Source: a virus
Direction: 5' to 3' (one strand)
Length of the DNA: 52,392 bases
IMG/VR virus record: IMGVR_UViG_3300045988_103014
Span: 141,780-194,171 of that record
The number at the start of each line of letters is the position of its first letter. The stretch's first letter is position 1. Under the pieces are notes generated by a model. It was not told the origin of the DNA. It did not search any database and saw only the letters and a program-made list of their open reading frames with translations. This document shows positions 36,011 to 49,782 of this stretch, one piece after another. The position numbers and the translations under genes are program-made.

Positions 36011-36069
36011 TCTCCCTTTGAAAAAATCCATTCGCACGCGCGCCGGCGACTGTGGCGCGCGTTATTTTC

Positions 36070-36151
36070 AGCTATTGGCAGTCTGCACAAAAATCTCCGG
36101 CGAATTTTGTGCAAAATTACCTGTTGACATTATCCCGAAATGGTGCTATAA
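36070..36151 (+). promoter_or_regulatory. operator-promoter module 1 (drives Pnk-like kinase gene)
   Basis: TGCACAAA (36084) - 14 nt - TTTTGTGCA (36105), then TTGACA 36124, spacer with ATCCCGAAAT, TATAAT 36146. Confidence 0.55.
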
Positions 36152-36183
36152 TAATTATAGTAAATGAGAGAGAGGTAATGACT

Positions 36184-36615
36184 ATGAGTACAATGTTCGT
36201 AACAATCGGAATGCCTGGATGTGGTAAGAGCACTTGGGCACAGACTAAAAACGCAAGAGTGATTTCATCTGACGCAATTCGCGAAGAGATGTTCGGAGAT
36301 GAAGCAATTCAGGGCGACCCTCGCAAGGTATTCGCAGAGGTTTACAAGAGACTTGCACAGGCTCTCATTGATGATGTGGATGTAATCTTTGACGCAACCA
36401 ACCTCGACTACAAGAGAGCAAAAGCAATCGAAATGTGCTACGAAATGGATTGCGAATGTGTTGCCGTTTACTTTGATGTAGACGCACAGACTTGCATTGA
36501 GAGACAGAACATGCGTTCTCGCAAAGTTCCTGCGTCAGTTATTCGCAGAATGTCTCATCAGTTAGTTGTTCCTTACCTCGAAGAGGGTTGGACACGAATT
36601 GAAAAAGTTTCGTAA
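36184..36615 (+). CDS. polynucleotide 5'-kinase (T4 Pnk kinase-domain homologue, P-loop NTPase)
   Basis: MSTMFVTIGMPGCGKSTWA... (Walker A), DATNLDYKR and VPASVIRRM segments align with the T4 Pnk kinase domain (LTIGCPGSGKSTWA ... ISDTNLNPERR ... VPIDVLRSM). The second ATG, 8 nt after GAGAGG, is the start. Confidence 0.8.
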   Translation: MSTMFVTIGMPGCGKSTWAQTKNARVISSDAIREEMFGDEAIQGDPRKVFAEVYKRLAQALIDDVDVIFDATNLDYKRAKAIEMCYEMDCECVAVYFDVDAQTCIERQNMRSRKVPASVIRRMSHQLVVPYLEEGWTRIEKVS

Positions 36616-36622
36616 AAGGGGG

Positions 36623-36651
36623 TTGACAAACACCCCTTTCGGTGCTATAAT
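36623..36651 (+). promoter_or_regulatory. hairpin-embedded promoter for 36684 gene
   Basis: TTGACA lies in the loop of GGGGG...CCCC; 17-nt spacer; TATAAT. Positions were confirmed by the TTG-start ORF in the track. Confidence 0.6.
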
Positions 36652-36683
36652 TAACTTATCAAATGAAAGAGAGGAAATGAAAA

Positions 36684-37022
36684 ATGTTTACAATAATTGC
36701 TTTAATAATCGCAATGATAATGAATGGAGTACCAACAGAGAACCTCAATGAAGTCAAGGTGTACAGTGACACAATGTGCGTTGTTGATGTAAACTACGCA
36801 GAGGACATTGTAACAATCGCAGACTTTAATGGATTTGAATTTCAGTTCGAGGGTTGTGAGGATTGGCTTGAGGGGGACCTTTGCTCTGTGACAATGTGCG
36901 ACAATGGAACAGAAAAAATCTTTGATGATGTAATCCTTGGCACAAGATACAGTGGTTGGGTTGAACAATGGGGTTTTGACATCGAAAGCAATGAGTATTT
37001 ATACTATTTTGATTTTGATTAA
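36684..37022 (+). CDS. hypothetical protein with N-terminal hydrophobic segment (112 aa)
   Basis: MFTIIALIIAMIMNG... signal/TM-like N-terminus; own hairpin-embedded promoter at 36623-36651. Confidence 0.45.
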   Translation: MFTIIALIIAMIMNGVPTENLNEVKVYSDTMCVVDVNYAEDIVTIADFNGFEFQFEGCEDWLEGDLCSVTMCDNGTEKIFDDVILGTRYSGWVEQWGFDIESNEYLYYFDFD

Positions 37023-37040
37023 AAAATTCAAAAAAAGGGG

Positions 37041-37069
37041 TTGACAAGTTCAACCCCATCTGTTATAAT
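37041..37069 (+). promoter_or_regulatory. hairpin-embedded promoter for 2H phosphoesterase gene
   Basis: GGGGTTGACAAGTTCAACCCC (8-bp stem) - TATAAT. Confidence 0.55.
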
Positions 37070-37099
37070 TAAATCATCAAAGAGAGAGAGGTAGATAAA

Positions 37100-37474
37100 A
37101 TGATTTACACCGCATTATTTATTAACGAAGAAGATAGAAGAACATCAAGACTTGATAAGACAATCGAGTTTCAGCACATCACACATCAGTTCAGACCAAA
37201 GACAGTAGATGAACGCTTATTCGGTCAGCAAGCAACTCTCAAGGTTGTTGGCTATGGTATCAACGAAGAGAATGAGGGCTACCTTGTAGAAATCGTTGAG
37301 GCTTCCGAGGAATTGAGAGAGGCTTTTGCAAGTGTTGAAGTACCTCACATCACAATCGGCATTTCCAACAGTGGCAAGGCTGTCAATACAAGATACCTTG
37401 AGTTTGAGGAAATTGAGCCTTTTGAAATCGTGGCAACTTACGGAGGTTTCTGCGGCGACCACGTAAAATTCTAA
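37100..37474 (+). CDS. 2H phosphoesterase superfamily protein (LigT / cyclic phosphodiesterase / Acb1-like), compact 124 aa
   Basis: Two H-x-T-x motifs (FQHITHQF near residue 26; VPHITIGIS near residue 82). N-terminal MIYTALFI resembles the LigT beta1 strand (RLFIAI). A VVGYGINEENEGYLVEIVEASEELREAF stretch separates the two motifs as in 2H enzymes. Confidence 0.5.
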   Translation: MIYTALFINEEDRRTSRLDKTIEFQHITHQFRPKTVDERLFGQQATLKVVGYGINEENEGYLVEIVEASEELREAFASVEVPHITIGISNSGKAVNTRYLEFEEIEPFEIVATYGGFCGDHVKF

Positions 37475-37493
37475 AAAAAGTTTCAAAAAGGGG

Positions 37494-37522
37494 TTGACAA
37501 ATGCCCCTTTTGGAGCTATAAT
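37494..37522 (+). promoter_or_regulatory. hairpin-embedded promoter for 37557 gene
   Basis: AAAAGGGGTTGACAAATGCCCCTTTT; 17-nt spacer; TATAAT. Confidence 0.55.
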
Positions 37523-37556
37523 AATTATAGAAAGAAACGAAAGAGAGGTAATTACA

Positions 37557-37736
37557 ATGAACGAAATGAGAGAGAACTTACTTGATAGAATGATTAGAAT
37601 TTACGGATTTGAACACGAGGTAGTAATCGAGTTCGCAAGAATGTGCGAGAGCGACGCATACACCGACAAAGACCTTGAGGTGCTTGTGAAGTGCCACGAG
37701 GAAAACCCAGTTGGGTTTGATGAGGACGAGGAGTAA
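37557..37736 (+). CDS. small acidic protein (59 aa)
   Basis: MNEMRENLLDRMIRIYGFEHEVVIEFARMCESDAYTDKDLEVLVKCHEENPVGFDEDEE; own promoter at 37494-37522. Confidence 0.45.
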   Translation: MNEMRENLLDRMIRIYGFEHEVVIEFARMCESDAYTDKDLEVLVKCHEENPVGFDEDEE

Positions 37737-37815
37737 TCCTTGTCCTTTTCATTTGGCGGCGCGCTTTCGGCCCTGGCGCGCCGAATTTATATTATACCAT
37801 ACCACCCGGGATTTT

Positions 37816-37910
37816 GTCAAGAGAAAATTTGCACAAATTTTTGGCGTTCAATTTCCCGAAATTTGTGCACATTTACCTATTGACAAATGGCTCAAGCTTT
37901 GCTATACTAT
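37816..37910 (+). promoter_or_regulatory. operator-promoter module 2 (drives a ~110-nt non-coding leader)
   Basis: GTCAAGAG ... TGCACAAAT (37830) - 22 nt incl. TTTCCCGAA - ATTTGTGCA (37861) ... CCTATTGACA (-35 37880) - 17 - TATACT. Confidence 0.55.
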
Positions 37911-37916
37911 AATTAC

Positions 37917-38030
37917 AGAAAGGGGAAGTGAGGCTTGACCGTTAAGCGTGTGCAGTTGGTATTTGACTTGACAAAGTCGGGTGCTGATTAGCGAGGGTTC
38001 AACGGAACCTCGAACCCTTTGAAAAAAAAT
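37917..38030 (+). ncRNA. candidate non-coding transcript from operator-promoter module 2
   Basis: No ORF or RBS for ~110 nt; ends in hairpin AGGGTTC...GAACCCT followed by an A-run and the next promoter. Confidence 0.25.
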
Positions 38031-38040
38031 AAAAAAAGTG

Positions 38041-38069
38041 TTGACAAAGGTTGTCAGCTATGCTATAAT
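38041..38069 (+). promoter_or_regulatory. promoter for 38100 gene
   Basis: TTGACA-17-TATAAT preceded by an A-tract. Confidence 0.55.
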
Positions 38070-38099
38070 TAAATCATCAAAGAGAGAGAGGTACACAAA

Positions 38100-38552
38100 A
38101 TGTATAGAATTGATAGAATGAGAAGAGATTACGAAAAGTTTACAGGTGCAGAGGGATACGCAATCGGTTTCCACATTGGCGAAGATGTTTACTGTGCAAT
38201 GCTTGACAGAATACCAAGAAGATTTACAAGAGTACAGAAAGAATGTTCTTCTTGTGGTGGTGGCTACGGACTTTACATCAATGTAAAGAATAAGAAAGCA
38301 AAAGCCGAACTGATGAAGAAAGCCGTTAAGGTTGGAACACTTGCAGACCTTGAGGGAGATTATAACAGAGGTGTAATGTTTGAAAAACTCGTTTACGAAA
38401 TGAATGGACAGACATTCAGAGGTAAAGACTCCGTAAGATTTACAGAGGGTGGCGACATTGTAATTGACGGAAAGGAAATTCAAGTCAAGTATGAACACGC
38501 AAGAATTTGTTATGATAGCACATTAAAAAAATTGAAAAAAGGGGTTGCATAA
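38100..38552 (+). CDS. hypothetical protein with CSSCGGG motif (150 aa)
   Basis: Own promoter at 38041-38069; RBS GAGAGAGAGG. Confidence 0.45.
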   Translation: MYRIDRMRRDYEKFTGAEGYAIGFHIGEDVYCAMLDRIPRRFTRVQKECSSCGGGYGLYINVKNKKAKAELMKKAVKVGTLADLEGDYNRGVMFEKLVYEMNGQTFRGKDSVRFTEGGDIVIDGKEIQVKYEHARICYDSTLKKLKKGVA

Positions 38553-38573
38553 TTGCTCCCCTTGTGCTATAAT
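38545..38573 (+). promoter_or_regulatory. hairpin-embedded promoter for 38605 gene
   Basis: GGGGTTGCATAATTGCTCCCC; TGcTATAAT. Confidence 0.5.
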
Positions 38574-38604
38574 AAGTATAGAAAATGAGAGAGAGGTAAT
38601 GATA

Positions 38605-38772
38605 ATGGCATTTGTAGAAATTTCCAAAAGAACAAAGAAAGAGCAGAAAGCCTACTACGCAAGTATGCGAAATGTGAACGGGTTCAACACCGGCACACGC
38701 ACAATGAAAACACCAAAAAATCCTACTCGTGCAATGCAGAAAGATGCTTGGCGAAAAGGTAAAGAAATTTAG
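38605..38772 (+). CDS. small basic protein (55 aa)
   Basis: MAFVEISKRTKKEQKAYYASMRNVNGFNTGTRTMKTPKNPTRAMQKDAWRKGKEI; ATG 8 nt after GAGAGG. Confidence 0.4.
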   Translation: MAFVEISKRTKKEQKAYYASMRNVNGFNTGTRTMKTPKNPTRAMQKDAWRKGKEI

Positions 38773-38781
38773 AAAAAAGTG

Positions 38782-38810
38782 TTGACAAACACCTCAAGCT
38801 GTGGTATTAT
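38782..38810 (+). promoter_or_regulatory. promoter for HAD phosphatase gene
   Basis: TTGACA-17-TGgTATTAT. Confidence 0.55.
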
Positions 38811-38837
38811 AATTATAGAAAGAGAGGTAAACAGATT

Positions 38838-39269
38838 ATGATGAAAGCAATTAACTTTGACATGGACGGAACATTAGCAAACTTCTACGGAGTAGAAAAT
38901 TGGTTGGAATACTTAATGGCAGAAGATGTAACACCTTACGAGGTAGCAAGACCACTCCTCAATCTTCAGGCACTTGCAAGAGTTCTCAACAGATTGCAGA
39001 GAGAGGGTTGGGAAATCAACATCATTTCTTGGTTAAGTAGAAACGGAAGTGATGACTACAACGCAAGAGTGACAGAAACCAAAAAGGCTTGGTTAGAAAA
39101 ACACCTTGCAAGTGTTCACTTCGACAACATCACAATAGTAAAGTACGGAACACCTAAACACACTTTAGGAAACGGAATACTTTTTGATGATGAAGAGCCA
39201 AACAGAAACGCTTGGGGCGTTGGTGCTTACGATGTGCAGAACATCATCGAAATTCTGAAAAATCTCTAA
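38838..39269 (+). CDS. HAD-family polynucleotide 3'-phosphatase (T4 Pnk phosphatase-domain homologue)
   Basis: INFDMDGTLA (HAD motif I DxDGT), ISWLSRNGS, and ILFDDEEPNRNAW (motif IV DD) are collinear with the T4 Pnk phosphatase domain (VIFDVDGTLA ... VVSGR ... LAIDDRTQVVEMW). Confidence 0.7.
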   Translation: MMKAINFDMDGTLANFYGVENWLEYLMAEDVTPYEVARPLLNLQALARVLNRLQREGWEINIISWLSRNGSDDYNARVTETKKAWLEKHLASVHFDNITIVKYGTPKHTLGNGILFDDEEPNRNAWGVGAYDVQNIIEILKNL

Positions 39270-39276
39270 AAAGGGG

Positions 39277-39305
39277 TTGACAAAACCCCTTGCAAGGGGT
39301 ATAAT
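39277..39305 (+). promoter_or_regulatory. hairpin-embedded promoter for 39326 gene
   Basis: GGGGTTGACAAAACCCC, then an alternative hairpin CCCCTTGCAAGGGG overlapping the spacer; TATAAT. Confidence 0.5.
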
Positions 39306-39325
39306 TAAACCATGAAAGAGAGGTA

Positions 39326-39517
39326 ATGAAAATGAAAACAGTTATTATTGAATACGCAACAATTAGTCCAGCAGTTCTTGCTAACAAGGTAGAGAAGGCT
39401 TTCTCTTGCTTGTGTAACTGGAAGGACATTGATGAGGACTACTTTGAGTTTACAGTCATTGGTGTTTGTGCTTGTGACATGGATGAACTTGAGGATGTGC
39501 TTGCAGAGTATGTGTAA
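39326..39517 (+). CDS. hypothetical small acidic protein (63 aa)
   Basis: Own promoter at 39277-39305; Cys-containing. Confidence 0.4.
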   Translation: MKMKTVIIEYATISPAVLANKVEKAFSCLCNWKDIDEDYFEFTVIGVCACDMDELEDVLAEYV

Positions 39518-39607
39518 ACTCTGCAAGCATTTTTTTGCCCAAGTTTGGGCGCCGCGCGCACGAACGATGCGCGCGGAATTTTCATTATACCATACCCCAC
39601 AGCTTTT

Positions 39608-39700
39608 GTCAAGAGAAAAGTTGCACAAATTTTCAATCGGTGCTATTCCCGAAATTTGTGCATTTTGCCAGTAGACAAAGCTCTGTTGGAGTGTTATAAT
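39608..39700 (+). promoter_or_regulatory. operator-promoter module 3
   Basis: GTCAAGAG ... TGCACAAAT (39622) - 22 nt incl. TTCCCGAA - ATTTGTGCA (39653), then TAGACA-17-TATAAT. Confidence 0.55.
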
Positions 39701-39731
39701 GATTATAGTAAATGAGAGAGAGGTAATGAGT

Positions 39732-39845
39732 ATGACAGTATTTTATTTATTCGATGAGTATGGAGTTTGTTGTGGCACTACTACTGACGAGGACTATGCG
39801 TCAGCGTGGGCAGATGCGAACGAGGGCTATTATTGTTGCGATTAG
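39732..39845 (+). CDS. tiny acidic Cys-rich peptide (37 aa)
   Basis: MTVFYLFDEYGVCCGTTTDEDYASAWADANEGYYCCD; ATG 8 nt after GAGAGG; operator-type promoter upstream. Confidence 0.3.
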   Translation: MTVFYLFDEYGVCCGTTTDEDYASAWADANEGYYCCD

Positions 39846-39848
39846 CCC

Positions 39849-39878
39849 TTGACATCATTCCAAAAGTGTGCTATACTA
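39849..39878 (+). promoter_or_regulatory. promoter for acidic-protein gene 39903
   Basis: TTGACA-18-TATACT. Confidence 0.5.
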
Positions 39879-39902
39879 ATAATAGAAAGAGAGGTAATTG
39901 CT

Positions 39903-40139
39903 ATGGTAGAAGTTTGGGCAATCAATAAGGTAACTGAAGAGGAACTATTCCTTGGATACTGCGACACTGAAGAGGACGCACAAGAGGACATTGACAACAA
40001 CATTGAGTGGGATGACCTCGACAATCCAGACGATTGGAGATTTGAAATCCGTCCAGCAGAGGACTATGAAGAGCCTTGCGACATTGATGATGATTGCGGC
40101 TTTGACCCTTACTGCGGTTGCTACACCTACGATTGTTAG
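39903..40139 (+). CDS. very acidic small protein (78 aa) - DNA-mimic / anti-restriction candidate
   Basis: MVEVWAINKVTEEELFLGYCDTEEDAQEDIDNNIEWDDLDNPDDWRFEIRPAEDYEEPCDIDDDCGFDPYCGCYTYDC; roughly 35% D/E; own promoter at 39849-39878. Confidence 0.45.
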   Translation: MVEVWAINKVTEEELFLGYCDTEEDAQEDIDNNIEWDDLDNPDDWRFEIRPAEDYEEPCDIDDDCGFDPYCGCYTYDC

Positions 40140-40168
40140 GTGTAGCTGAAAAAAATTTCAAAAAGGGG

Positions 40169-40198
40169 TTGACAAGTTCCCCACAGTGTGCTATACTT
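40169..40198 (+). promoter_or_regulatory. hairpin-embedded promoter for NDT-like gene
   Basis: GGGGTTGACAAGTTCCCC; TATACT. Confidence 0.5.
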
Positions 40199-40227
40199 AA
40201 TGTATCAAATGAAGAGAGGTAATGTGT

Positions 40228-40629
40228 ATGAAGATTTATTTGGCAAGTCCATTTTTTAATCAGTTAGAAAGAGCAAATGTTGTAAAGGTCGCAGAGAGAT
40301 TGCGTGCCGAGGGTCACGAGGTCTATGTTCCAATGGAACACGAGATTGAAAATGCGTGGGATTTACCTAACAATGAATGGTCACGCAGAGTATTCAAAGA
40401 CGATGTTGACGCAATTCGCAAGGCTGACAAGGTTGTTGCAATCACTTATGGAATGACTGATGACGCAGGAACTTCGTGGGAGATTGGCTTTGCTTACGGC
40501 ATTGACAAAACTGTTGAGGTTATTTCTGTAAATCAGACAACTTATTCTTTAATGGTTTATCAGAGTTGTGCAGAGGTTTCAGACCTTGACGGAAACCCAT
40601 TAAGAAAAAAAGAAATTTTACAAAGTTAG
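40228..40629 (+). CDS. nucleoside 2-deoxyribosyltransferase-fold protein (NDT / Rcl-DNPH1-like)
   Basis: MKIYLASPFF (compare IYFGAGWF) and DDAGTSWEIGFAYGIDKTV (compare EDVGLGMELGYALSQGKYV) are the two signature segments of the Nuc_deoxyrib_tr fold. Confidence 0.6.
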   Translation: MKIYLASPFFNQLERANVVKVAERLRAEGHEVYVPMEHEIENAWDLPNNEWSRRVFKDDVDAIRKADKVVAITYGMTDDAGTSWEIGFAYGIDKTVEVISVNQTTYSLMVYQSCAEVSDLDGNPLRKKEILQS

Positions 40630-40632
40630 GGG

Positions 40633-40661
40633 TTGACAAAACCCCACTAATGGGGTATAAT
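40633..40661 (+). promoter_or_regulatory. hairpin-embedded promoter for 40693 gene
   Basis: GGGGTTGACAAAACCCC plus an alternative CCCCACTAATGGGG; TATAAT. Confidence 0.5.
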
Positions 40662-40692
40662 AATTATAGAAAATGAAAGAGAGGTATTTACT

Positions 40693-40893: not shown

Positions 40894-40921
40894 TCTTCCC
40901 AAAGATTTTTCAAAAAAAGTC

Positions 40922-40950
40922 TTGACAACCGACTGAAAACGTTGTATAAT
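40922..40950 (+). promoter_or_regulatory. promoter for 40976 gene
   Basis: TTGACA-17-TATAAT. Confidence 0.5.
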
Positions 40951-40975
40951 GATTATAGAAAGTGAGGTAAGGATT

Positions 40976-41177: not shown

Positions 41178-41184
41178 ATAATTG

Positions 41185-41292
41185 TCAAGAGGAAGTGTTT
41201 AAAACCACTTAAAACGTATCCGTAGGGCAACAAGTAGCGAAGAATGAGAATCAGTAGCGATAGTAAAAACCCTTTCGATTTTCTCAAAAACC
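41185..41292 (+). ncRNA. candidate short non-coding transcript / leader
   Basis: Downstream of the TTGACA-17-TAATAT promoter; only a 33-codon ORF without RBS. Confidence 0.2.
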
Positions 41293-41321: not shown

Positions 41322-41327
41322 ATAAGT

Positions 41328-41519
41328 ACATAAGGTTGAGGTAGTTAATGTGTGAGCCCAAGGGAGCAAGAACCGAAACGCTACCGACAAAGACAACCTA
41401 GCGCACGGGCACTCAGGTGTGCGCTATACAAGTGTGAACCAAAACCACAGTTCCGTTTGCAAGTTTGTGGACTAGCCTAGAGTGTAATGGAACAAGAGCC
41501 GAAAGGCTCTATTTTTTTT
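41328..41519 (+). ncRNA. candidate ~190-nt non-coding RNA
   Basis: Consensus promoter at 41293-41321, no RBS-bearing ORF, internal stem GCGCACGGGCACTCAGGTGTGCGC, and termination at the GNRA-loop hairpin + T8. Confidence 0.35.
41495..41519 (+). terminator. terminator ending a non-coding transcript
   Basis: AGAGCC-GAAA-GGCTCT (GNRA loop) followed by T8. Confidence 0.6.
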
Positions 41520-41564
41520 GTCCATTTGAGCCTGCCGCGCCCGATGGTTGCGGCCGGTATTTTT

Positions 41565-42342: not shown

Positions 42343-42363
42343 TCGGTCAACCCATGGTATAAT
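42335..42363 (+). promoter_or_regulatory. promoter for 42388 gene (-35 inside hairpin GGGTTGAC..GTCAACCC)
   Basis: TTGACT-17-TGgTATAAT. Confidence 0.5.
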
Positions 42364-42624: not shown

Positions 42625-42700
42625 AATTCTCGTCCTTTTTCAGCGCCGCGCCGGCGAACGTCCGGCGCGGTGTTTATTATACCACATCGGCTCAGCATTT

Positions 42701-42795
42701 GTCAAGAGGAAAATTGCACAAATTTTCAAATAATTTTTTTTCCCAATTTGTACAATCTGCCTATTGATTTTTATTAAAAAATTTGGTATTATAAT
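42701..42795 (+). promoter_or_regulatory. operator-promoter module 5 (degenerate right arm)
   Basis: GTCAAGAGG ... TGCACAAAT (42715) ... TTTTTCCCAATTTGTACA ... CCTATTGATT (-35) - 17 - TGgTATTAT. Confidence 0.45.
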
Positions 42796-42864
42796 AGTGT
42801 CAAAAGGAAAGGGAATAAAAAAACCGAGAGGAAAAAAAATTCCAAAAAAAAATGAAAAACCTAT

Positions 42865-43033: not shown

Positions 43034-43438
43034 ATGGTGGTAATTATGGAAAAGATGACTAATGTTAAGGCAATCGAGTATGTTCTTGCAAACGCAACTC
43101 TCCCTACTGATGTAAAGGAGAAGTTAGAGAAGATGAAGGCACAGTTTGTGAAGAAGAACTCTGCCGACAGAAAGCCTACTGCAAATCAGGTTGAGAACGC
43201 AGAGTTTAAGGTGGCAATCCTTGACTACCTTGCAACTGTTGAGTCTGCGACTATCTCCGACTTAATGAAGTCCGTTCCTGCTCTTGCAGAACTCTCAAAT
43301 CAGAGAGTATCGGCAATCGTTAGACAGTTAAAGGACTCTGGCGAGGTTGTTAGAGAGGAAATCAAGAGAAAGGCTTACTTCTCTCTTGCCGAGGACTCTG
43401 CCGACCTTGACGAGTCCGAGGACTCTGACGAGGAGTAA
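43034..43438 (+). CDS. winged-helix DNA-binding protein, paralogue A1 of a triplicated family
   Basis: TISDLMKSVPALAELSNQRVSAIVRQLKDSGEVVREEIKRKAYF reads as helix-turn-helix plus wing; acidic C-tail. About 70% identical to 44536..44928 and 48749..49132. The true start may be the ATG at 43046. Confidence 0.55.
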   Translation: MVVIMEKMTNVKAIEYVLANATLPTDVKEKLEKMKAQFVKKNSADRKPTANQVENAEFKVAILDYLATVESATISDLMKSVPALAELSNQRVSAIVRQLKDSGEVVREEIKRKAYFSLAEDSADLDESEDSDEE

Positions 43439-43521: not shown

Positions 43522-43893
43522 ATGACAAACGAAGAAAGAATTGAACAGTTGATGAAAAGTCTTGATTGTAGTCGAGAAGAAGCAATCCAAGTAATCGCAG
43601 ACGATGAAGCCATTGACAAGGGCGAAAAGTTGTTTGAACTCTCTGCCGAACAGAAAAAGGCGAGCAAAGACGCACGAAACACAGGTGCGAAAAAGCCGAC
43701 CGTTTACAAGTTCGATACTTCCAAGAGAAAGAAAGCCGAGAATGTGGGCAAACGCACATTGATTGATACAATCAAAGCAAGCCTTGATGAAATCGGTGTC
43801 GAGGGAATGGAAGTCACGAACCCCGAACGAGAGTTGAACTTCTCCGTTGATGGTGTCAAGTACAAAATCGTGTTGAGTTGCCCGAGAAAGTAG
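43522..43893 (+). CDS. hypothetical protein, paralogue B1 (pairs with 49230..49640)
   Basis: Shares KKPTVYKFDT and the C-terminal beta-rich region with paralogue B2. Confidence 0.45.
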   Translation: MTNEERIEQLMKSLDCSREEAIQVIADDEAIDKGEKLFELSAEQKKASKDARNTGAKKPTVYKFDTSKRKKAENVGKRTLIDTIKASLDEIGVEGMEVTNPERELNFSVDGVKYKIVLSCPRK

Positions 43894-43900
43894 GGCAACT

Positions 43901-44002
43901 TGCACAAATAAAATTCTCTGTTTTGCACAAAGTTCCAGCCGGAATTTTGTGCAATTTTTTTTATCCAAAAGGCTTGACAAAAGCGGCGACCTGTGCTATA
44001 AT
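43901..44002 (+). promoter_or_regulatory. operator-promoter module 6 (two left half-sites)
   Basis: TGCACAAAT (43901) + TGCACAAAG (43924) - 12 nt - TTTTGTGCA (43945), then TTGACA-16-TATAAT. The transcript immediately enters a GC hairpin. Confidence 0.5.
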
Positions 44003-44062
44003 GGCGCGCCGCTGTCGGCAGCAGCGGCGTGAATTTCCAGTATACCACACTCTCAGCAATTT

Positions 44063-44156
44063 GTCAAGCAAAAACTCCAGGGCAATCTGCACAAATCTTT
44101 TTCCCGAAATTTGTGCAACATTGCCTATTGCATTTTGGGGGTGGGTGTGCTATACT
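44063..44156 (+). promoter_or_regulatory. operator-promoter module 7
   Basis: GTCAAG ... TGCACAAAT (44088) - CTTTTTCCCGAA - ATTTGTGCA (44109) ... CCTATTGCAT (-35) - 17 - TATACT. Confidence 0.5.
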
Positions 44157-44324
44157 TATAATTGTCAAGGGGAGGTGGCAACGTCCGATACGAACACTGA
44201 AAAAAAATTGACAAAACCCCTTGACAAACCTCTCTCAATAGTGTATAATGATTATACAAGGTAGGGATAACAAATGAGATTGAAACCCACTTAAAATAAG
44301 TCAAAAAAAACTATTGACAAATAA

Positions 44325-44494: not shown

Positions 44495-44535
44495 TAATAA
44501 TGTAAACAAAACAAATCACATTCAAAGAAAGGTAA

Positions 44536-44928
44536 ATGGTGGTAAACATGGAAAAGATGACAAACGTAAAGGCAATTGATTTCGTACTTGGCAACTGTGA
44601 GGTTCCTGCTGATGTAAAGGAAAAGTTGGAGAAGATGAAGGCTCAGTTCATCAAGAAGTCTAGTGCGGAGCGTAAGCCTACCGCAAATCAGACTGAGAAC
44701 GCAAGCCTCAAGGTGGCTATCCTCGACGCAATGGAAGAGGGTAAGGGTTACACCATCACCGACTTGATGAAGGTTGTGCCTGAACTTGCAGACCTCTCTA
44801 ATCAGAGGGTAAGTGCAATCGTTCGTCAGATGAAGGACGAGGGTACTGTAACTCGTGAGGAGATTAAGCGTAAGGCTTACTTCACAAAGGCAACTGACGA
44901 GGTTGCCGACCTTGAGGACGAGGAGTAA
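44536..44928 (+). CDS. winged-helix DNA-binding protein, paralogue A2
   Basis: Same architecture as A1; preceded by two tandem consensus promoters in AT-rich DNA. Confidence 0.55.
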   Translation: MVVNMEKMTNVKAIDFVLGNCEVPADVKEKLEKMKAQFIKKSSAERKPTANQTENASLKVAILDAMEEGKGYTITDLMKVVPELADLSNQRVSAIVRQMKDEGTVTREEIKRKAYFTKATDEVADLEDEE

Positions 44929-45026
44929 TCCTCGCCCCCTTGGGGGTAACTGAATAACGGATAAACTAGGGCGGTTTGAGCAAAGGCTTGAACCGCCCGC
45001 TTACGTTCGACGCGGGCGGTGTTTTC

Positions 45027-45109
45027 GTCAATAGGCAGTTTCAACAAATTTTCGGCGTAAAATTTGTGCAATTTTACCTATTGCAATTTTCCCGTAATCG
45101 TGGTATTAT
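45027..45109 (+). promoter_or_regulatory. operator-promoter module 8
   Basis: GTCAATAGGCAG - TTCAACAAAT (degenerate left) - 13 - TTTGTGCA (45063) ... CCTATTGCAA (-35) - TTTTCCCGTAATCGTGG - TATTAT. Confidence 0.5.
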
Positions 45110-45415
45110 AATAATGTCAAGAGGGGATGGTAACTCGGTAACAAGTCCTTAAAAAATTTTCACAAGAGTTGAAAAAACCTCTTGACAACCTCTCTCAAAG
45201 GTGCTATAATGAGAGAGTAGAAAGGAAATAAGAAATGGCACAGATAGTAATTTGTTGTGGTGGACAACCCACAGAAAAAGATAAGCGAGAGATTTACAAC
45301 TTGCTTGAGTTCAAAAAAAGATTAAAAAAAATAAAAAAGGTATTGACAAACCTACAAAGTAGTGTTATAATAAATACATAAAGAACAGAAAACAAATCAC
45401 AGAAAGAGAGAGGTA

Positions 45416-45991
45416 ATGAGTATGAATTACAGAGAAATGCAGACAATCGCAAAGGTTAATGAAGTAGTAAAGATGATTGAGGCTCTTGGTCTTAACGGAG
45501 AGTTCACAAAGAAACAGTTTGACAAGGTTCGTGCAAACGGCTCTACAAGTCTTGATTGGATGAGAGAACAGGGTATGAGAGCAAACGGACAGTTCGGTTG
45601 CAAGCCTTGGCGTAAAGAAACTTTCAGACCTATCGCAAAGTTGGTTCGTCAGGAGTATTTCACAATCACTCTCAAAGAGCCTATCGAAAAGAGAGTTGTT
45701 GTCACTGCCGACGGCAAAGAAATTCCTAATGTCAAGGCTGATGACATTCGTTGGAACTCTACCGCAAAGGCACTTCTTGAGCAGATTTTCCCTGGCTTTA
45801 GAATTGACTATGTAACAACAAATGAAATCGAGGTTTGCCGTAACTATTACGAAATCGACTATGATGTAGTAAGAGAAATGGTAGATTGGTGCGAGAGTAA
45901 GAATGCACTTGTTGCCGACTACTACGGCGAGAAACTTGCAAAAGCAAGAGCCGAGGTTGCAAGACTTGAAAGAATTGTGAGTGCTTTCTAA
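45416..45991 (+). CDS. hypothetical protein (191 aa)
   Basis: Own promoter (~45343-45371); RBS GAGAGAGG. Confidence 0.45.
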   Translation: MSMNYREMQTIAKVNEVVKMIEALGLNGEFTKKQFDKVRANGSTSLDWMREQGMRANGQFGCKPWRKETFRPIAKLVRQEYFTITLKEPIEKRVVVTADGKEIPNVKADDIRWNSTAKALLEQIFPGFRIDYVTTNEIEVCRNYYEIDYDVVREMVDWCESKNALVADYYGEKLAKARAEVARLERIVSAF

Positions 45992-46068
45992 AAGAAAAGA
46001 GGTGGGGGAGCAATCCCCCTACCTCTCTCAATAAATTTTCGCAGCTACAAAAATTTTTCCAAAAGGTA

Positions 46069-46097
46069 TTGACAAACTATAAATTTAATGTTATAAT
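46069..46097 (+). promoter_or_regulatory. promoter for HExxH gene
   Basis: TTGACA-17-TATAAT (position confirmed via the TTG-start ORF in the track). Confidence 0.55.
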
Positions 46098-46122
46098 AAT
46101 TATAGAAAGTGAGGAAAGAACT

Positions 46123-46608
46123 ATGGGACTTAAAGGAATTAAAACAATAAACAGAACATTAAATAAGTTTCTCGCACCTTTTGAGTGTACTGCAAGAATG
46201 GGAACTGAATTTTGTTATTTATACAGTAAGAGTTTGATTTTGTATTCGTTTGTAATGCCCGACCTCGAAATTGAACACGATTTCCAAGCAAGCATTGACC
46301 GACTTAATCCAACAGTAAAAATGGATAGTTTCCTTTGGGGTTTGCTTCACGAACTCGGACACCACGAAACAATGGACGAAATCGAGGACGAAGAATACGA
46401 GTATTGCCAACAGGTAAAAGAGCAAATCAACAACCAAGAGGTAGACGCAGTTGAATACTACGACCTCATTGATGAACGACTTGCGACAGAGTGGGCTGTG
46501 AGATACGCAGACGCCCACGCACTCGAACTCAAAAAGTGGTGGGAAGAAGAAATGCAACCTGCGATAATGCACTTTTACAAAATCAACAATGTAGAAATCG
46601 AGGGGTAA
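46123..46608 (+). CDS. HExxH-motif protein (putative small zinc metallopeptidase, ImmA/IrrE-like?)
   Basis: LLHELGHHETMDE contains HELGH followed by H and E, then an acidic run. Track ORF starts at TTG (= -35 box); ATG 46123 after AGTGAGGAAAG. Confidence 0.35.
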   Translation: MGLKGIKTINRTLNKFLAPFECTARMGTEFCYLYSKSLILYSFVMPDLEIEHDFQASIDRLNPTVKMDSFLWGLLHELGHHETMDEIEDEEYEYCQQVKEQINNQEVDAVEYYDLIDERLATEWAVRYADAHALELKKWWEEEMQPAIMHFYKINNVEIEG

Positions 46609-46664
46609 CACCCTCGGTTTTTTAATTTGAGCCGCGCGCCAGTGAACGTGGCGCGTGGTGTTTT

Positions 46665-46747
46665 GTCAAGAGTAATACTGCACAAATTTTTCGTGCAAAA
46701 TTTGTGCAAAATGACCACTTGACTTTTTTCCCGTAATCGGCTATAAT
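46665..46747 (+). promoter_or_regulatory. operator-promoter module 9
   Basis: GTCAAGAG ... TGCACAAAT (46679) - 13 - TTTGTGCA (46701), then TTGACT - TTTTTCCCGTAATCGGC - TATAAT. Confidence 0.55.
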
Positions 46748-46778
46748 GATTATAGTAAATGAAAGAGAGGTGGACACA

Positions 46779-46946
46779 ATGGACGCATTCAAGAGGGAAA
46801 CTGTTGTGGGTTGCACTGTTTGGGACATCAACGCAAAGTGTGTTCATAATAAAAACAGAGCAAAGGACTATCGAAAGGTTGTTCGGTCGGCTCGCAGAAA
46901 AAATCGAGAAAATTTGAAAAAAATGCTTGACAACCTGACCGAATAG
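46779..46946 (+). CDS. small basic protein (55 aa)
   Basis: MDAFKRETVVGCTVWDINAKCVHNKNRAKDYRKVVRSARRKNRENLKKMLDNLTE; operator-type promoter upstream. Confidence 0.4.
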   Translation: MDAFKRETVVGCTVWDINAKCVHNKNRAKDYRKVVRSARRKNRENLKKMLDNLTE

Positions 46947-46955
46947 AGTTATAAT
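46927..46955 (+). promoter_or_regulatory. promoter for membrane-protein gene 46987
   Basis: TTGACA-17-TATAAT; the -35 lies within the last codons of the upstream gene. Confidence 0.5.
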
Positions 46956-46986
46956 AATTATAGAAAATGAAAGAGAGGTATTGCCT

Positions 46987-47466
46987 ATGAATACAACATT
47001 ACTTATTACTTTTATCGTTTTATCTATCGTCAATGTAATCTTACAGACAGTAAAGTCTATCGTGACTATCAAGTGTGGTAAGATTTCAGCAAGTGTGGTA
47101 AATGCCGTTGCTTTCGGTCTTTACACTATCGTTACAGTTTACACAATGTGCGACTTGCCTTTAATGATTAAGGCTTTAGTAGTTGCCCTTTGTAACCTTG
47201 TCGGTGTTTTCATTGTAAAGTGTATCGAAGAAAAGACACGCAAAGACAAGTTGTGGAAAGTTGAACTCACAGTAAGAGCAGATAGAACAAATGTTCTTGC
47301 AAGAGAGTTAGAGGAACTCGCAATTCCTTACAACTACATTCCTAATGTTGGCAAGTACACAGTATTTAATATTTACTGTGCGACACAGAAAGAAAGTGCC
47401 TTTGTTAAGGAATTGACAACTCGCCACAAGGCAAAATACTTTGTCACAGAGAGCAAAGCCCTTTAA
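46987..47466 (+). CDS. membrane protein (3 N-terminal TM helices + cytosolic C-domain)
   Basis: MNTTLLITFIVLSIVNVILQ..., AVAFGLYTIVTVYTM, ALVVALCNLVGVFIV hydrophobic segments; could be a holin-like or superinfection-exclusion protein. Confidence 0.45.
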   Translation: MNTTLLITFIVLSIVNVILQTVKSIVTIKCGKISASVVNAVAFGLYTIVTVYTMCDLPLMIKALVVALCNLVGVFIVKCIEEKTRKDKLWKVELTVRADRTNVLARELEELAIPYNYIPNVGKYTVFNIYCATQKESAFVKELTTRHKAKYFVTESKAL

Positions 47467-47518
47467 TGGGCTTGCCCTCGCAAGGGCGGAGCTGCCGCAA
47501 AATTTTTTCAAAAAAGTA

Positions 47519-47547
47519 TTGACAACCCCAGGGTTTTGGTGTATAAT
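47519..47547 (+). promoter_or_regulatory. promoter for DEDDh exonuclease paralogue 2
   Basis: TTGACA-17-TATAAT. Confidence 0.5.
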
Positions 47548-47579
47548 TAACTTATCAAATGAAAGAGAGGTTTTAAGAT

Positions 47580-48230
47580 TTGGATTTTGGAATAATGATT
47601 GATACAGAAACTACAAACGGTTTTGATGACCCTATGTTTTATGACTGTGGGTGGCAAGTGATAGACACTCTTGGCAATGTTTACAGAGAACGCTCGTTCG
47701 TAAATGCCGACATTTTTTGTGGGGAAAAGGACTTGATGAAAGAAGCCTTTTTTGCCGACAAAATTCCTCAGTATTGGGAAGAAATCAAAGACGGCTCGCG
47801 AATGTTGGCAAGTACAAACGGAATACGCAAGGCACTTGCCGAAGATGTGCGAATGTTTGGTTGCTCGTTCATTTGTGCCCACAATGCACGATTTGACTAC
47901 AAGGCACTTGCGAAAACGCAAAGATACATCACAAAGTCAAAATACAGATACTTTGTTCCTTTTGGTCTTGTGTGGTGGGATACCTTGAAAATGGCTCGTC
48001 AAGTCTTGGGAAATGATGAACAGTACCGAGAGTTTTGCGAACTCAACGACTACATTTGCAAAAATGGACAGTTGAGAATGACAGCCGAAATCGTTTACAG
48101 ATTTATTTCTGACAATAACGATTTTGTCGAGGAACACACCGGCTTGGCTGATGTGGACATTGAAAGACAGATTTTGGCTTATTGTCTTGCAAAAATGCCA
48201 GACCTTGACCGAGAACTGTGGGGAAACTAA
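47580..48230 (+). CDS. DEDDh 3'-5' exonuclease, paralogue 2
   Basis: IDTETTNG (Exo I), HNARFDY (Exo II), HTGLADVDIERQIL (Exo III). TTG start 9 nt after GAGAGG is supported by alignment with paralogue 1. Confidence 0.6.
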   Translation: MDFGIMIDTETTNGFDDPMFYDCGWQVIDTLGNVYRERSFVNADIFCGEKDLMKEAFFADKIPQYWEEIKDGSRMLASTNGIRKALAEDVRMFGCSFICAHNARFDYKALAKTQRYITKSKYRYFVPFGLVWWDTLKMARQVLGNDEQYREFCELNDYICKNGQLRMTAEIVYRFISDNNDFVEEHTGLADVDIERQILAYCLAKMPDLDRELWGN

Positions 48231-48246
48231 CCCCCACAGTTTTTTG
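48216..48246 (+). terminator. terminator after DEDDh exonuclease paralogue 2
   Basis: CTGTGGGG-AAACTAA-CCCCACAG + T6; the stop codon lies in the loop. Confidence 0.6.
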
Positions 48247-48288
48247 TGCATTTTGCCTATTGACAAATAAATTTCCATGTGATAAAAT
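48241..48288 (+). promoter_or_regulatory. operator-promoter module 10 (right half-site only), transcript enters GC hairpin
   Basis: TTTTGTGCA (48241) ... CCTATTGACA (-35 48260) - 17 - TAAAAT. Confidence 0.4.
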
Positions 48289-48347
48289 GGCGCCGCGCCG
48301 ACGGTAGAGAGGCGCGGTAATTATTATACCACATCACCCCACAAAAA

Positions 48348-48433
48348 GTCAATAGGAAAATTGCACAAATTTTAACCCCATTTTTTATCCCAAAATTGTT
48401 ACTTTTGCCTATTGACACAAAAAGTCAATAGGC
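48348..48433 (+). promoter_or_regulatory. operator module 11 with perfect 10-bp outer palindrome
   Basis: GTCAATAGG ... TGCACAAAT (48362) ... GCCTATTGAC-ACAAAAA-GTCAATAGGC (48407-48433). Confidence 0.45.
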
Positions 48434-48505
48434 AATCTGCACAAAGATTTTCTGTTCAGTTTGTGCAATTCGCACATTGATTTTTTGTAAAAAATTTGGT
48501 ATTAT
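48434..48505 (+). promoter_or_regulatory. operator-promoter module 12 (distal promoter of wHTH A3 stack)
   Basis: TGCACAAAG (48438) - 13 - TTTGTGCA (48460), then TTGATT-17-TGgTATTAT. Confidence 0.5.
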
Positions 48506-48567
48506 TATTATACAAGGTAAGGGAAAGACCTTAAAAAAACTTTTCCAAAAAAATTAAAAAAAAACTG

Positions 48568-48596
48568 TTGACAAACCTTAAAAATTTTGTTATAAT
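48568..48596 (+). promoter_or_regulatory. middle promoter upstream of wHTH A3 (near-identical to 29388 promoter)
   Basis: TTGACAAACCTTAAAAATTTTGtTATAAT, versus ...TTTTGaTATAAT at 29388. Confidence 0.5.
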
Positions 48597-48675
48597 AATT
48601 ATAGAAAGTAAAGGAAAGGGAATTTCAAAAAGCCATTCGGCAAACAAAAAAAATAAAAAAAGTTGAAAAAAACCC

Positions 48676-48704
48676 TTGACAACTTTCAAAGTAAATGTTA
48701 TAAT
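48676..48704 (+). promoter_or_regulatory. proximal promoter of wHTH A3
   Basis: TTGACA-17-TATAAT. Confidence 0.55.
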
Positions 48705-48748
48705 AAGTATGTAAGGTAAACAAAAACAAATCACTCAAAGAAAGGTAA

Positions 48749-49132
48749 ATGGTGGTAATTATGGAAAAAATGACTAATGTAAAGGCTCTTGATGTTGTTC
48801 TTAATGGTGGCGAAATCACTGCCGAGGTTCGTGAGAAACTTCAGAAAATGCGTGAGCAGTTTGTGAAGAAAAATTCTGCCGAGAGAAAGCCTACGGCAAA
48901 TCAGACCGAGAATGCCTCTCTCAAGGTTGCCATTGTGAACGCAATGGAAATCGGTCGCAAGTACACTATTACGGACTTGATGAAAGCCGTACCTGAACTT
49001 GCCGACCTCTCAAATCAGAGAGTGTCTGCCATTGTCCGTCAGATGAAAGACGAGGGAACGGTTGTTCGTACCGAGGAAAAGCGTAAGGCTTATTTCGAGG
49101 TTGCCGTTACTGACGAGGGTGAGGACGAGTAA
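48749..49132 (+). CDS. winged-helix DNA-binding protein, paralogue A3
   Basis: ITDLMKAVPELADLSNQRVSAIVRQMKDEGTVVRTEEKRKAYF; three stacked promoters upstream. Confidence 0.55.
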   Translation: MVVIMEKMTNVKALDVVLNGGEITAEVREKLQKMREQFVKKNSAERKPTANQTENASLKVAIVNAMEIGRKYTITDLMKAVPELADLSNQRVSAIVRQMKDEGTVVRTEEKRKAYFEVAVTDEGEDE

Positions 49133-49174
49133 TCGTCCTTTGCCCCAAAGGGCAAAAAAAGTTTCAAAAAAGGC

Positions 49175-49203
49175 TTGACAAATGCTTTCGGCTTTGGTAT
49201 AAT
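49175..49203 (+). promoter_or_regulatory. promoter for paralogue B2
   Basis: TTGACA-17-TGgTATAAT. Confidence 0.5.
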
Positions 49204-49229
49204 GATTATAGAAAGTGAGGGAAATGCTT

Positions 49230-49640
49230 ATGACAGACTACATTAAAGAGGTTATGGAAATCACAGGCTACACACAAGCCAAAGCCGAAAAGTATTATCA
49301 GTCGGTTTACAAGGACTTGTCCGAGGACGGCGAGGTATCAGCCGAAGATGTAATCGAGGTTATCCGAATTGAAAAAAAGGTTAAGGACAACGGCGTAAAG
49401 ACTGTTGCGAGAGCCGACAAGCCGAAAAAGGCACCAACTGTCTACAAATTTGACACCGAAAAGACCAAAAAACGTCCAAAGGACGAGGAAAAAGTGCAAA
49501 TTGTAGAAAAAATTGCCGAATTTATGGCAGAAATTAGCGAAAATGCTGAAATTTCCAACCCTGGACAGACAATTTCGTTCAAAATCGGCGAAAATTCGTA
49601 CAGTTTGACCTTAACCAAGCACAGAACACCGAAAAAATAG
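49230..49640 (+). CDS. hypothetical protein, paralogue B2
   Basis: KAPTVYKFDTEKTKK shared with B1; ATG 8 nt after AGTGAGGG. Confidence 0.45.
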   Translation: MTDYIKEVMEITGYTQAKAEKYYQSVYKDLSEDGEVSAEDVIEVIRIEKKVKDNGVKTVARADKPKKAPTVYKFDTEKTKKRPKDEEKVQIVEKIAEFMAEISENAEISNPGQTISFKIGENSYSLTLTKHRTPKK

Positions 49641-49647
49641 TGCAATT

Positions 49648-49746
49648 TGCACAAAAAACCGGTGTCAAGGGGCAAAACCGACAAGGTTTGCCCCATTTTT
49701 TTGTGCATTTTTACTATTGACAAAGGGGGTCGGTCTGTGGTATAAT
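49648..49746 (+). promoter_or_regulatory. operator-promoter module 13 (terminator hairpin between half-sites)
   Basis: GTGCAATTTGCACAAAA (49642-49657; palindrome) ... terminator ... TTTGTGCA (49700), then TTGACA-18-TATAAT. The transcript enters hairpin GGGCCGGCCGC...GCGGCCGG. Confidence 0.5.
49669..49702 (+). terminator. terminator after paralogue B2, embedded between operator half-sites
   Basis: GGGGCAAA-ACCGACAAGG-TTTGCCCC + T7. Confidence 0.6.
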
Positions 49747-49782
49747 GGGCCGGCCGCTGACGCAAGCTGCGGCCGGAATTTC

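Follow-up and report, generated by a model that had tools for sequence, protein, structure and literature searches.

In T4-like phages, a strong sigma-70-type early promoter coupled to a G/C stem-loop (PeSL) lies between ORFans, where it has been proposed to attenuate incoming transcription, and its copies act as recombination points or mediate shuffling (PMC2839356, PMC4122927). The element considered here lies in a stretch of viral DNA of 52,392 nucleotides (positions 141,780 to 194,171 of IMG/VR record IMGVR_UViG_3300045988_103014; hereafter the window, to which all coordinates refer) and consists of a short GC hairpin and a conserved box, TTATACCACA plus TTTGTCAAGAG, at the left edge of operator-bearing promoter modules. 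The box is close to certainly a promoter that points backward into the hairpin (P_L), and the hairpin is tentatively read as a transcription barrier that acts in both directions. As with PeSL, a strong promoter and an adjacent stem-loop are repeated in the intergenic spaces of an ORFan-rich region, but a PeSL ends with the Shine-Dalgarno sequence and start codon of the next gene, whereas P_L and a second group of hairpin-directed promoters (the 'close' promoters described below) aim at no gene. The stems differ from those of PeSL in being longer (7-16 bp), GC-only and downstream of the -10 box, and the units here carry an operator half-site and occur as back-to-back and face-to-face pairs. Further, the PeSL phages are T4-like myoviruses, whereas the window belongs to a large tape-measure-encoding phage with Bacillota-type terminase relatives. 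With respect to recombination, a possible parallel consists of similarity breaks and one indel beside hairpins, one inversion and one deletion among the few loci compared. The likeness to PeSL is closer for the operator-less GGGG..TTGACA..CCCC promoters of the window (e.g., 37037-37057). Ordinary gene promoters of this kind sit inside GGGG...CCCC stems that span the -35 element (36616-36640, 37037-37057, 37486-37510, 39270-39296 and 40629-40651), and some of these stems score as terminators on both strands, forming compact terminator/promoter composites.

Several other described systems share parts of this arrangement. Head-on collisions of E. coli polymerase, positioned by a stem-loop, prevent read-through (bioRxiv 10.1101/2022.10.23.513370). 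The units resemble these bidirectional collision terminators in placing a stem-loop between converging transcription, but in the described cases genes converge on the site and A-/U-tracts flank it, whereas here one or two orphan promoters lie 2-9 nt from the stem and the U-tracts are poor. In phage SPbeta, a 15-bp operator motif (SPBRE) is found in about ten promoter regions and is bound by one master repressor, MrpR (PMC10516654). A short operator repeated in many early promoters of a large Bacillota phage is common to both, and the terminase of the window is distantly SPbeta-related, but no backward promoter or GC hairpin has been described for SPBRE, and the likeness is one of layout, not of sequence comparison. 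Convergent promoters tens of bp apart, with complementary 5' ends and transcriptional interference, are known from IS10 (pIN/pOUT, where RNA-OUT is a stable stem-loop) and from coliphage 186 (pR/pL); these are single switches with genes on each side, whereas the present units number dozens of copies per genome and at least one partner lacks a gene. The 77-nt OOP RNA of phage lambda is complementary to the 3' end of the cII mRNA; its promoter lies downstream of that gene and converges with it, and the RNA is ended by its own intrinsic terminator. P_L is likewise convergent with the 3' end of the upstream gene, but its hairpin lies at the 5' end of the transcript and no 3' terminator occurs above background.

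Read on the minus strand, TTATACCACA becomes TGTGGTATAA(T) and TTTGTCAAGAG becomes CTCTTGACAAA, and the two together are close to certainly a leftward sigma-A-type promoter of the form CTCTTGACAAA-17/18-TRTGGTATAAT, the Gram-positive consensus with a -16 element. Promoters were scored as matches out of 12 to the -35 and -10 hexamers. A complete backward promoter is present in five of the 11 modules of the window, with spacers of 17-18 nt and TG before the -10 box in all five: 37820..37791 (12/12, TTGACA-18-TATAAT with TATG at -16; this is the 'TTATACCA...TTTGTCAAGAG' box, and the stem begins 7 nt past its -10), 39612..39584 (12/12, TTGACA-17-TATAAT with TATG), 42705..42676 (12/12, TG, TTGACA-18-TGTGGTATAAT), 44067..44039 (11/12, TG, TTGACA-17-TGTGGTATACT) and 48352..48323 (11/12, TG, TTGACT-18-TGTGGTATAAT), all on the minus strand. 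The end of the -10 box is separated from the GC stem by 3-7 nt. ATTATACCA stands directly after four hairpins (37791, 39584, 42676 and 48323), with the variant GTATACCA at 44040. TATACCA lies behind five of the 11 hairpins (37793, 39586, 42678, 44041 and 48325), which are five of the seven hairpins listed in the original prediction as followed by the box; the other six lead into a T-rich stretch and GTCAAGAG or GTCAATAGG, and at 46632 and 49750 that claim does not hold, TATACCA being missing there as it is at 36036, 41531 and 44992.

The same letters occur elsewhere in the window as promoters. ATTATACCA is found in 11 copies against 0.6 expected, of which five, on the other strand, are the -10 regions (TGGTATAAT) of ordinary rightward gene promoters, and TGGTATAAT precedes a Shine-Dalgarno sequence and start codon at 42355, 49195 and 50497. 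One further ATTATACCA/TGGTATAAT copy is the promoter of the sigma-factor gene (29355, minus strand). For TRTGNTATAAT, which is reportedly a Gram-positive -16/-10 motif, 0.34 copies are expected and 13 were found, including those at four of the five boxes. The box matches the promoters in conservation because it is itself one of them, pointing left. Its conservation, noted from the outset, is borne out, and the segment that had been expected to resist free variation changes only as a -10/-16 element should, the sole free base being the n of TGnTATAAT. The earlier reading of the box as the 'UAUACCACA tail' of a plus-strand RNA has to be given up, as the conservation profile is that of an opposite-strand promoter.

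Relatives were drawn from uncultivated viral contigs with two DNA pattern scans, which together gave 74 loci (35 and 39). The first scan (TGCACAAATTT-N8-30-AAATTTGTGCA) returned 35 loci on contigs of 11-200 kb, and the statistics on hairpins and promoters given here were taken on the window and these 35 loci. Several of the 35 share the terminase region with the window at 65-67% nucleotide identity and have the same arrangement, and thus come from phages of one kind with it; the module can be recognised across the whole set. A near-perfect promoter aimed at the stem (-10 box ending 1-14 nt before it) accompanies 95 of 169 GC hairpins (56%), compared with 7% of random positions, and 13 of the 169 have an aimed promoter on both sides. 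The box recurs in related uncultivated phages in about a hundred units (108 non-redundant), which fall into two tight spacing classes. The 'far' class, to which P_L belongs, has 70 units, with 7-9 nt between -10 and stem in 62 of them and the consensus TTTGTGCAaatTTtcCTATTGACAAAA-N-TRTGgTATAATGGAAATTT-stem. The 'close' class, that of three rightward promoters in the window, has 38 units with 2-5 nt and the form TATAATGGGC-stem; face-to-face pairs nearly always combine one close and one far promoter. Of the 70 far units, 69 have TG and 61 have TRTG, neither being required for detection. Information content reaches 2 bits at TTGACA, TG and TATAAT, compared with 0.1-0.5 bits at spacer positions, and the n of TGnTATAAT is variable (G 47, T 13, A 10).

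The second, independent scan was anchored only on TGGTATAATGGAAWTTY followed by eight G/C bases and matched 46 stretches, 39 of them new loci. A complementary second arm was present in all 21 distinct new units examined, and a TTTGTGCA-like half-site was recognised at the same upstream position in 14 of the 21 with the pattern used, the rest having near-variants or nothing recognisable. Units are numerous within a genome region (e.g., 6-12 per 7-14 kb locus), and the locus maps show promoter, genes, terminator, GC hairpin and backward promoter repeating in that order every 0.7-1.2 kb; in three arrays (L028, L032 and L033), P_L faces nearly every gene. Among bacterial genome contigs, units were found in only six, all from metagenome-assembled genomes, of which four are labelled Bacilli, Clostridia, Bacillota or Erysipelotrichaceae and two are not informatively labelled. 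The host is probably a member of the Bacillota, to which these labels, as products of binning, lend weak support. Many Flavobacterium genomes (among genome contigs L075-L138) contain the operator pattern TGCACAAATTT-N-AAATTTGTGCA as well, but no promoter-hairpin units; there the pattern presumably represents an unrelated palindromic site.

Three rightward promoters had been noted to fire into a hairpin, and all three are present as members of the close class on the plus strand: 43974..44002 (12/12, TG; -10 ending 2 nt from the stem), 48260..48288 (11/12, TG; CCTATTGACA-17-TAAAAT) and 49717..49746 (12/12, TG; TTGACA-18-TGTGGTATAAT). Their transcripts had been expected to start 5-15 nt before the hairpin; the -10 boxes end just 2-4 nt from the stem, so a start about 7 nt past the -10 would fall 3-5 nt inside the 5' arm. 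These orphan promoters are built like P_L (half-site, -35 and -10), and P_L and the three together are one promoter type, aimed at no gene and with the GC hairpin as sole target. Judged from promoter spacing, the hairpin would begin at about +1 for P_L and straddle +1 for the orphan rightward promoters.

Within a module, P_L stands back-to-back with a rightward partner promoter (P_R), and a single TTTGTGCA half-site precedes the (C)CTATTGACA -35 element of either promoter by about 8 nt. The 'operator' palindrome is the two half-sites of these divergent back-to-back promoters; GTCAATAGG, found behind hairpins as noted above, is the reverse complement of CCTATTGAC. An inverted half-site pair, TGCACAAA ... 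TTTGTGCA, lies at 37830..37869 between the two back-to-back -35 elements, followed by P_R at 37880..37908 (plus strand, CCTATTGACA-17-TATACT), and in the same way the half-site pair at 39622..39662 is followed by P_R at 39672..39700 (plus strand, from the promoter scan). Half-site pairs are also found at 43924..43953, upstream of an orphan rightward promoter and with an extra TGCACAAA at 43901, and at 44088..44117. Two successive operator regions occupy 48362..48467, with the palindrome CCTATTGACAcaaaaaGTCAATAGG between them (48408-48432), while the orphan promoter at 49717 is preceded by a single TTTGTGCA half-site (49700..49707), the partner TGCACAAA being at 49648 with a terminator between.

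The right half-site, unlike the left, is directly adjoined by a third conserved box, (A)TCCCGAAA or ATCCCAAAA, at 37853, 39646 and 44101 (TTCCCGAAA) and also in relatives; the two operator half-sites are thus not equivalent. Three paralogous small proteins (43034-43438, 44536-44928 and 48749-49132), each encoded behind 2-3 tandem consensus promoters, have a weak winged-helix signature and acidic tails, and a second paralogue pair (43522-43893 and 49215-49640) adjoins two of the three. The small winged-helix paralogues are candidates for the protein that binds the TTTGTGCA half-site, as is the AbrB-type protein encoded at 30905.

An unbiased scan of the whole 52 kb for stems of at least 7 bp and at least 80% GC returned 12 stems, 10 of which are module hairpins (starting at 36036, 37757, 39552, 41531, 42644, 44005, 44992, 46632, 48293 and 49750). 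All seven GC hairpins listed in the original prediction were recovered, shifted by 1-6 nt. Predicted folding energies range from -16.7 to -26.5 kcal/mol, the mean in the relatives being about -19 kcal/mol. The strongest is that at 42644..42672 (-26.5 kcal/mol). The hairpin at 37757..37783 has the upstream gene's terminator (37722-37747) on one side and the backward promoter on the other, that at 39552..39576 follows the terminator of its upstream gene (39497-39530), and those at 44005..44031 and 48293..48317 are flanked by face-to-face promoters. Five others retain the hairpin, a GTCAA box, the operator and P_R without a backward -10 box: 36036..36062 (followed by TTATTTTC and terminator-like on the plus strand), 41531..41557 (TATTTTT and GTCAATAGG, with the backward promoter reduced to a -35 remnant), 44992..45020 (GTTTTC and GTCAATAGG), 46632..46658 (TGTTTT and GTCAAGAG) and 49750..49776 (GAATTTC and GTCAATAGG). 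P_L is optional, and the hairpin is not. Upstream of the first operator module, an eleventh GC-rich hairpin (34366..34394, -20 kcal/mol, followed by GTGTTTATCAATAG) is weaker than the other 10 and contains G.U pairs. This first module is atypical and, with the first small gene, lies in CA-rich low-complexity sequence (cacacaac repeats, 34400-34960).

CGCG and GCGC are concentrated in the hairpins, with 20 of 49 and 21 of 92 window copies, respectively, falling within 270 nt. A role as restriction sites was rejected: a GC-only composition accounts for this excess, and the hairpins have no single site in common. Likewise, hairpin promoters of the N4 or crAss type, read by a virion RNA polymerase, were ruled out; the 3221-amino-acid open reading frame (ORF) of the window is a tape-measure protein, and host-type promoters flank every hairpin. 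A search of Rfam at gathering thresholds returned no RNA family, and in E-value mode only two sub-threshold microRNA matches were obtained, both on operator palindromes.

The stems are nearly GC-only; of 624 pairs, 10 are non-standard (98% Watson-Crick), and G.U pairs are all but absent on both strands. Every stem position has both C-G and G-C pairs, and 68 hairpins contain 46 distinct outer arms. When 3' arms were dealt to other hairpins, pairing was 47%, a comparison that is partly circular, as the hairpins were found by pairing; the non-circular check is provided by the 21 second-scan units. An alignment of the copies had been suggested as a means of finding compensatory changes in the stem; one such change separates the orthologues L032 and L034 (GGTCC/GGACC versus GGCCC/GGGCC). 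Because the stems are almost perfectly Watson-Crick, the asymmetry of G.U versus A.C pairs was uninformative as a test of the folding strand (2 versus 3 and 5 versus 3 cases). A general loop motif that could serve as a protein site was looked for and rejected, since only small families were found (AGGAACG, CCGATG and GCGACCCAT), some in both orientations. Constraint on the hairpins thus acts on pairing and G+C content, equally on both strands, and not on sequence. In two contigs that are 97% identical, a 30-nt hairpin between convergent promoters is exactly inverted in one of them (L007:6503-6541, L016:7026-7060), and in a third contig (L011) the hairpin at the same site is 13 nt shorter. Where related loci were aligned (several were compared), similarity tended to break off at the hairpins, next to which indels occur.

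Of the 108 units, 46 face a convergent ORF at its end, 51 have no ORF called downstream, and 11 have one on the same strand; the same-strand cases, among those listed, are mostly close-class promoters in tandem with P_R. No Shine-Dalgarno sequence or start codon was found downstream of the hairpin-directed promoters. Past the hairpin in the direction of P_L there is an A-run and then the reverse complement of the upstream gene's terminator and U-run. The hairpins had also been considered as possible intrinsic terminators after coding genes, and this stands in part: the stems are stable and some have a U-tract in the gene direction (36036, 41531, 44992 and 46632). Where P_L is present, however, the gene-direction tail is AAATTTCC / AAATTTCCAT and not a U-tract, with at least 4 T in 8 nt in 29% of units, and in 50 of 70 units the gene strand already has a canonical terminator, its T-run no more than 60 nt from the GC hairpin, so that the hairpin is a further structure placed after the actual terminator. 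As had been proposed, the element exists, is conserved and amounts to more than a simple terminator.

The reading that we favour, with a probability of about 45%, is that the hairpin would block transcription on both strands alike and so bound each operator-controlled cassette on its left, the orphan promoters giving rise there to dead-end transcripts. For polymerases arriving from the left, whether past the terminator of the upstream gene or from an orphan promoter, the hairpin would stop read-through, and it is proposed that the regulated P_R is thereby neither bypassed nor disturbed. From the right, the strong P_L would be held to a very short, hairpin-capped dead-end transcript and not run antisense across the upstream gene. 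A barrier in both directions is favoured because the stems are strand-symmetric, being Watson-Crick on both strands whatever their sequence. A stop is favoured over elongation because in the L028, L032 and L033 arrays an elongating P_L would place strong, self-defeating antisense transcription on every early gene. As the U-tracts are poor on both sides, transcription would probably be stopped by the high stability of the stem, in combination with converging polymerases that meet head-on or occlude one another. The -10 boxes of a face-to-face pair lie about 35-45 bp apart (e.g., 44002 versus 44039, about 37 bp), and given the footprint of the polymerase, about 37 bp leaves no room for two open complexes. 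The cassette borders are repeated and in part palindromic and may double as recombination points.

A number of observations weigh against such a barrier. The insulator model leaves the retention of perfect orphan promoters unexplained. There is no U-tract past the hairpin in the P_L direction (consensus CCCAAAAAAA; 1.2 T per 8 nt on average, and at least 4 T in 9% of units), and the hairpin is therefore not a canonical intrinsic terminator for P_L. A dedicated terminator further downstream was also rejected, as a terminator on the P_L strand lies within 260 nt in 17 of 70 units, against 23% of random pieces, which is background. On the gene strand, the canonical terminators already ahead of the hairpin in those 50 of 70 units make a second barrier look redundant. 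Finally, the rule that a U-tract accompanies the hairpin only when P_L is absent holds in the window and is not significant across loci (35% versus 18%, p = 0.19).

If transcription from P_L were instead to continue, the product could be a functional antisense RNA whose 5' GC hairpin guards it against RNase J/Y-type 5'-end-dependent decay, a rather unlikely alternative. The spacing suits it, with the hairpin 0-2 nt from the expected start (from the 7-9 nt between -10 and stem in 62 of 70 far units); a hairpin right at the start of a transcript is the geometry that a 5' stabiliser needs. There is also no terminator past the hairpin, and the sequence that comes next is the exact complement of the upstream gene's terminator and U-run. 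Such an RNA might pair with the terminator, U-tail and 3' coding end of the upstream mRNA, leading either to RNase III-type decay or early-gene shut-off, as OOP does with cII, or to 3'-end protection, an extension that we hold to be unlikely in similar measure. All P_L copies of the window face genes that are under operator-less promoters, and turning on the operator class could silence the previous class. The background level of terminator-like sites, on the other hand, leaves the 3' end of an antisense RNA undefined, and the arrays of several relatives would suffer strong antisense transcription on every gene. The absence of P_L from five of 11 window modules speaks against antisense regulation as well, and the rightward close promoters and the face-to-face pairs, in which P_L is aimed at a promoter and not at a gene, would go unexplained.

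The perfectly conserved, regulated and dedicated promoters have nothing else to express, which raises the improbable alternative that the hairpin RNA is itself the product, in the form of abundant 30-45 nt 5'-triphosphate GC hairpins, or of short duplex RNA where face-to-face promoters transcribe both strands, acting as decoys or sponges for a host function that binds, degrades or senses RNA. Of the alternatives, this one comes nearest to the short structured RNA of the original prediction. The many copies in each genome (6-12 per 7-14 kb locus) and the compensation that keeps the stems intact as their sequence drifts would suit a product of this kind. Taken further, and about equally improbable, the units might be genes for a new class of phage small RNA, with dozens of copies per genome, or polymerase traps, saturating or blinding host RNA decay, an RNA-sensing defence or the sigma-A holoenzyme and not regulating the genes next to them. 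With such poor U-tracts, though, nothing sets the 3' end of the RNA, and transcripts from close promoters would have a 5' arm short by 3-5 nt. Stems and loops are too diverse for a sequence-specific target, the small loop families occurring in both orientations, and Rfam holds no matching family.

A primary role of the DNA itself, slightly more doubtful again, would make the hairpins recombination or cruciform sites that shuffle small cassettes, with the two-way promoters allowing expression in either orientation. The stems are perfect palindromes on both strands, the near-identical contigs described above differ by the exact inversion of a 30-nt hairpin and by a 13-nt deletion, and the similarity of related loci repeatedly breaks at hairpins, with indels beside them. 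The cassettes are small and mostly unannotatable ORFs, each with its own promoter, and PeSL elements offer a precedent (PMC2839356, PMC4122927). Recombination, however, needs neither the tight 7-9 nt spacing nor GC-only stems, and shuffling at these sites could be an evolutionary consequence that is compatible with any transcriptional role. Of the short-RNA, anti-termination and DNA-site ideas raised in the original prediction, regulated anti-termination at a promoter with an immediate terminator (as in lambda P_R'-t_R'/Q, HK022 put or lambda nut), with a factor acting at the half-site or on the hairpin RNA, is the weakest and highly improbable, because the backward promoters, the commoner class, have no same-strand gene downstream to reach, and, although a strong promoter leading straight into a stem-loop is a fitting geometry and close promoters do stand in tandem upstream of operator, P_R and gene (window 49717-49900), the initial region of GGAAATTT plus GC has no -10-like pause element, the hairpin sequence is unconserved, unlike nut or put, and has no Rfam match, and no Q- or N-like protein was found among the proteins scanned.

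Whichever role applies, a puzzling 'conserved RNA tail' now has a simple and checkable reading as the phage's own consensus promoter reversed. This group of large uncultivated phages, probably of gut and rumen Bacillota, maintains perfect promoters, on the order of a hundred, that are linked to an operator and express no gene; all of them point at a GC clamp, and some face one another across it. If the units are insulators, they would represent a compact natural means of isolating regulated cassettes without U-tract terminators, with a bearing on collision-assisted termination and on Gram-positive synthetic biology, and if the RNA is functional in its own right, phage small RNAs would gain a new kind. 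In either case, the annotation of early regions and of mosaic breakpoints in these phages can make use of the units, which mark the borders of cassettes.

The window comes from a large tailed phage, with structural and packaging genes on the minus strand to about 29.3 kb, including that for the tape-measure protein (PF10145), and rightward genes from about 29.5 kb onward. Its large terminase shares about 48% identity with the terminases of Enterococcus and Geobacillus phages of 134-142 kb and 33-36% with those of SPbeta type. A phage sigma factor gene lies at 28271-29329 on the minus strand. From 34.2 to 50.8 kb, nearly every gene in a run of small ORFs, mostly without a family match, has its own consensus promoter; the window holds 91 promoter-like sites, 33 of them perfect (12/12), compared with 34.9 +/- 6.1 in shuffles. 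No nucleotide similarity to sequenced phages was found by megablast of the 14.8-kb region or blastn of one module, a protein-based search in viral contigs found no relatives of the exonuclease-like protein encoded at 47580-48230, and no tRNA or tmRNA genes were found. The early region also codes for a FolD-type methylenetetrahydrofolate dehydrogenase/cyclohydrolase (30088-30888), an AbrB/MazE-type DNA-binding protein (30905-31165), an AAA_33 kinase-like protein (36052-36615), a 5' nucleotidase-like protein (38838-39269) and a nucleoside 2-deoxyribosyltransferase (40222-40629).

Several consensus promoters in this region, mostly operator-linked, are followed by 50-200 nt without a credible ORF (37909-38030, 41178-41290, 41324-41520, 42795-42860, 44165-44210, 45108-45175 and 48508-48560). 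These stretches often start with TGTCAAGAGG or ACAAGGTAAGG and end at a terminator or at the next promoter; they may be small RNAs, and Rfam gave no match for them. A further perfect promoter (50797-50825) leads into about 270 nt of GC-rich non-coding DNA, to 51105, that is unlike the rest of the region and holds CCGCATATGCG repeats and several palindromes, with a fold not clearly better than that of shuffled sequences (z = -1.7). The stretch at 50797-51105 forms the right end of the promoter-dense region, and gene style and composition shift just after it.

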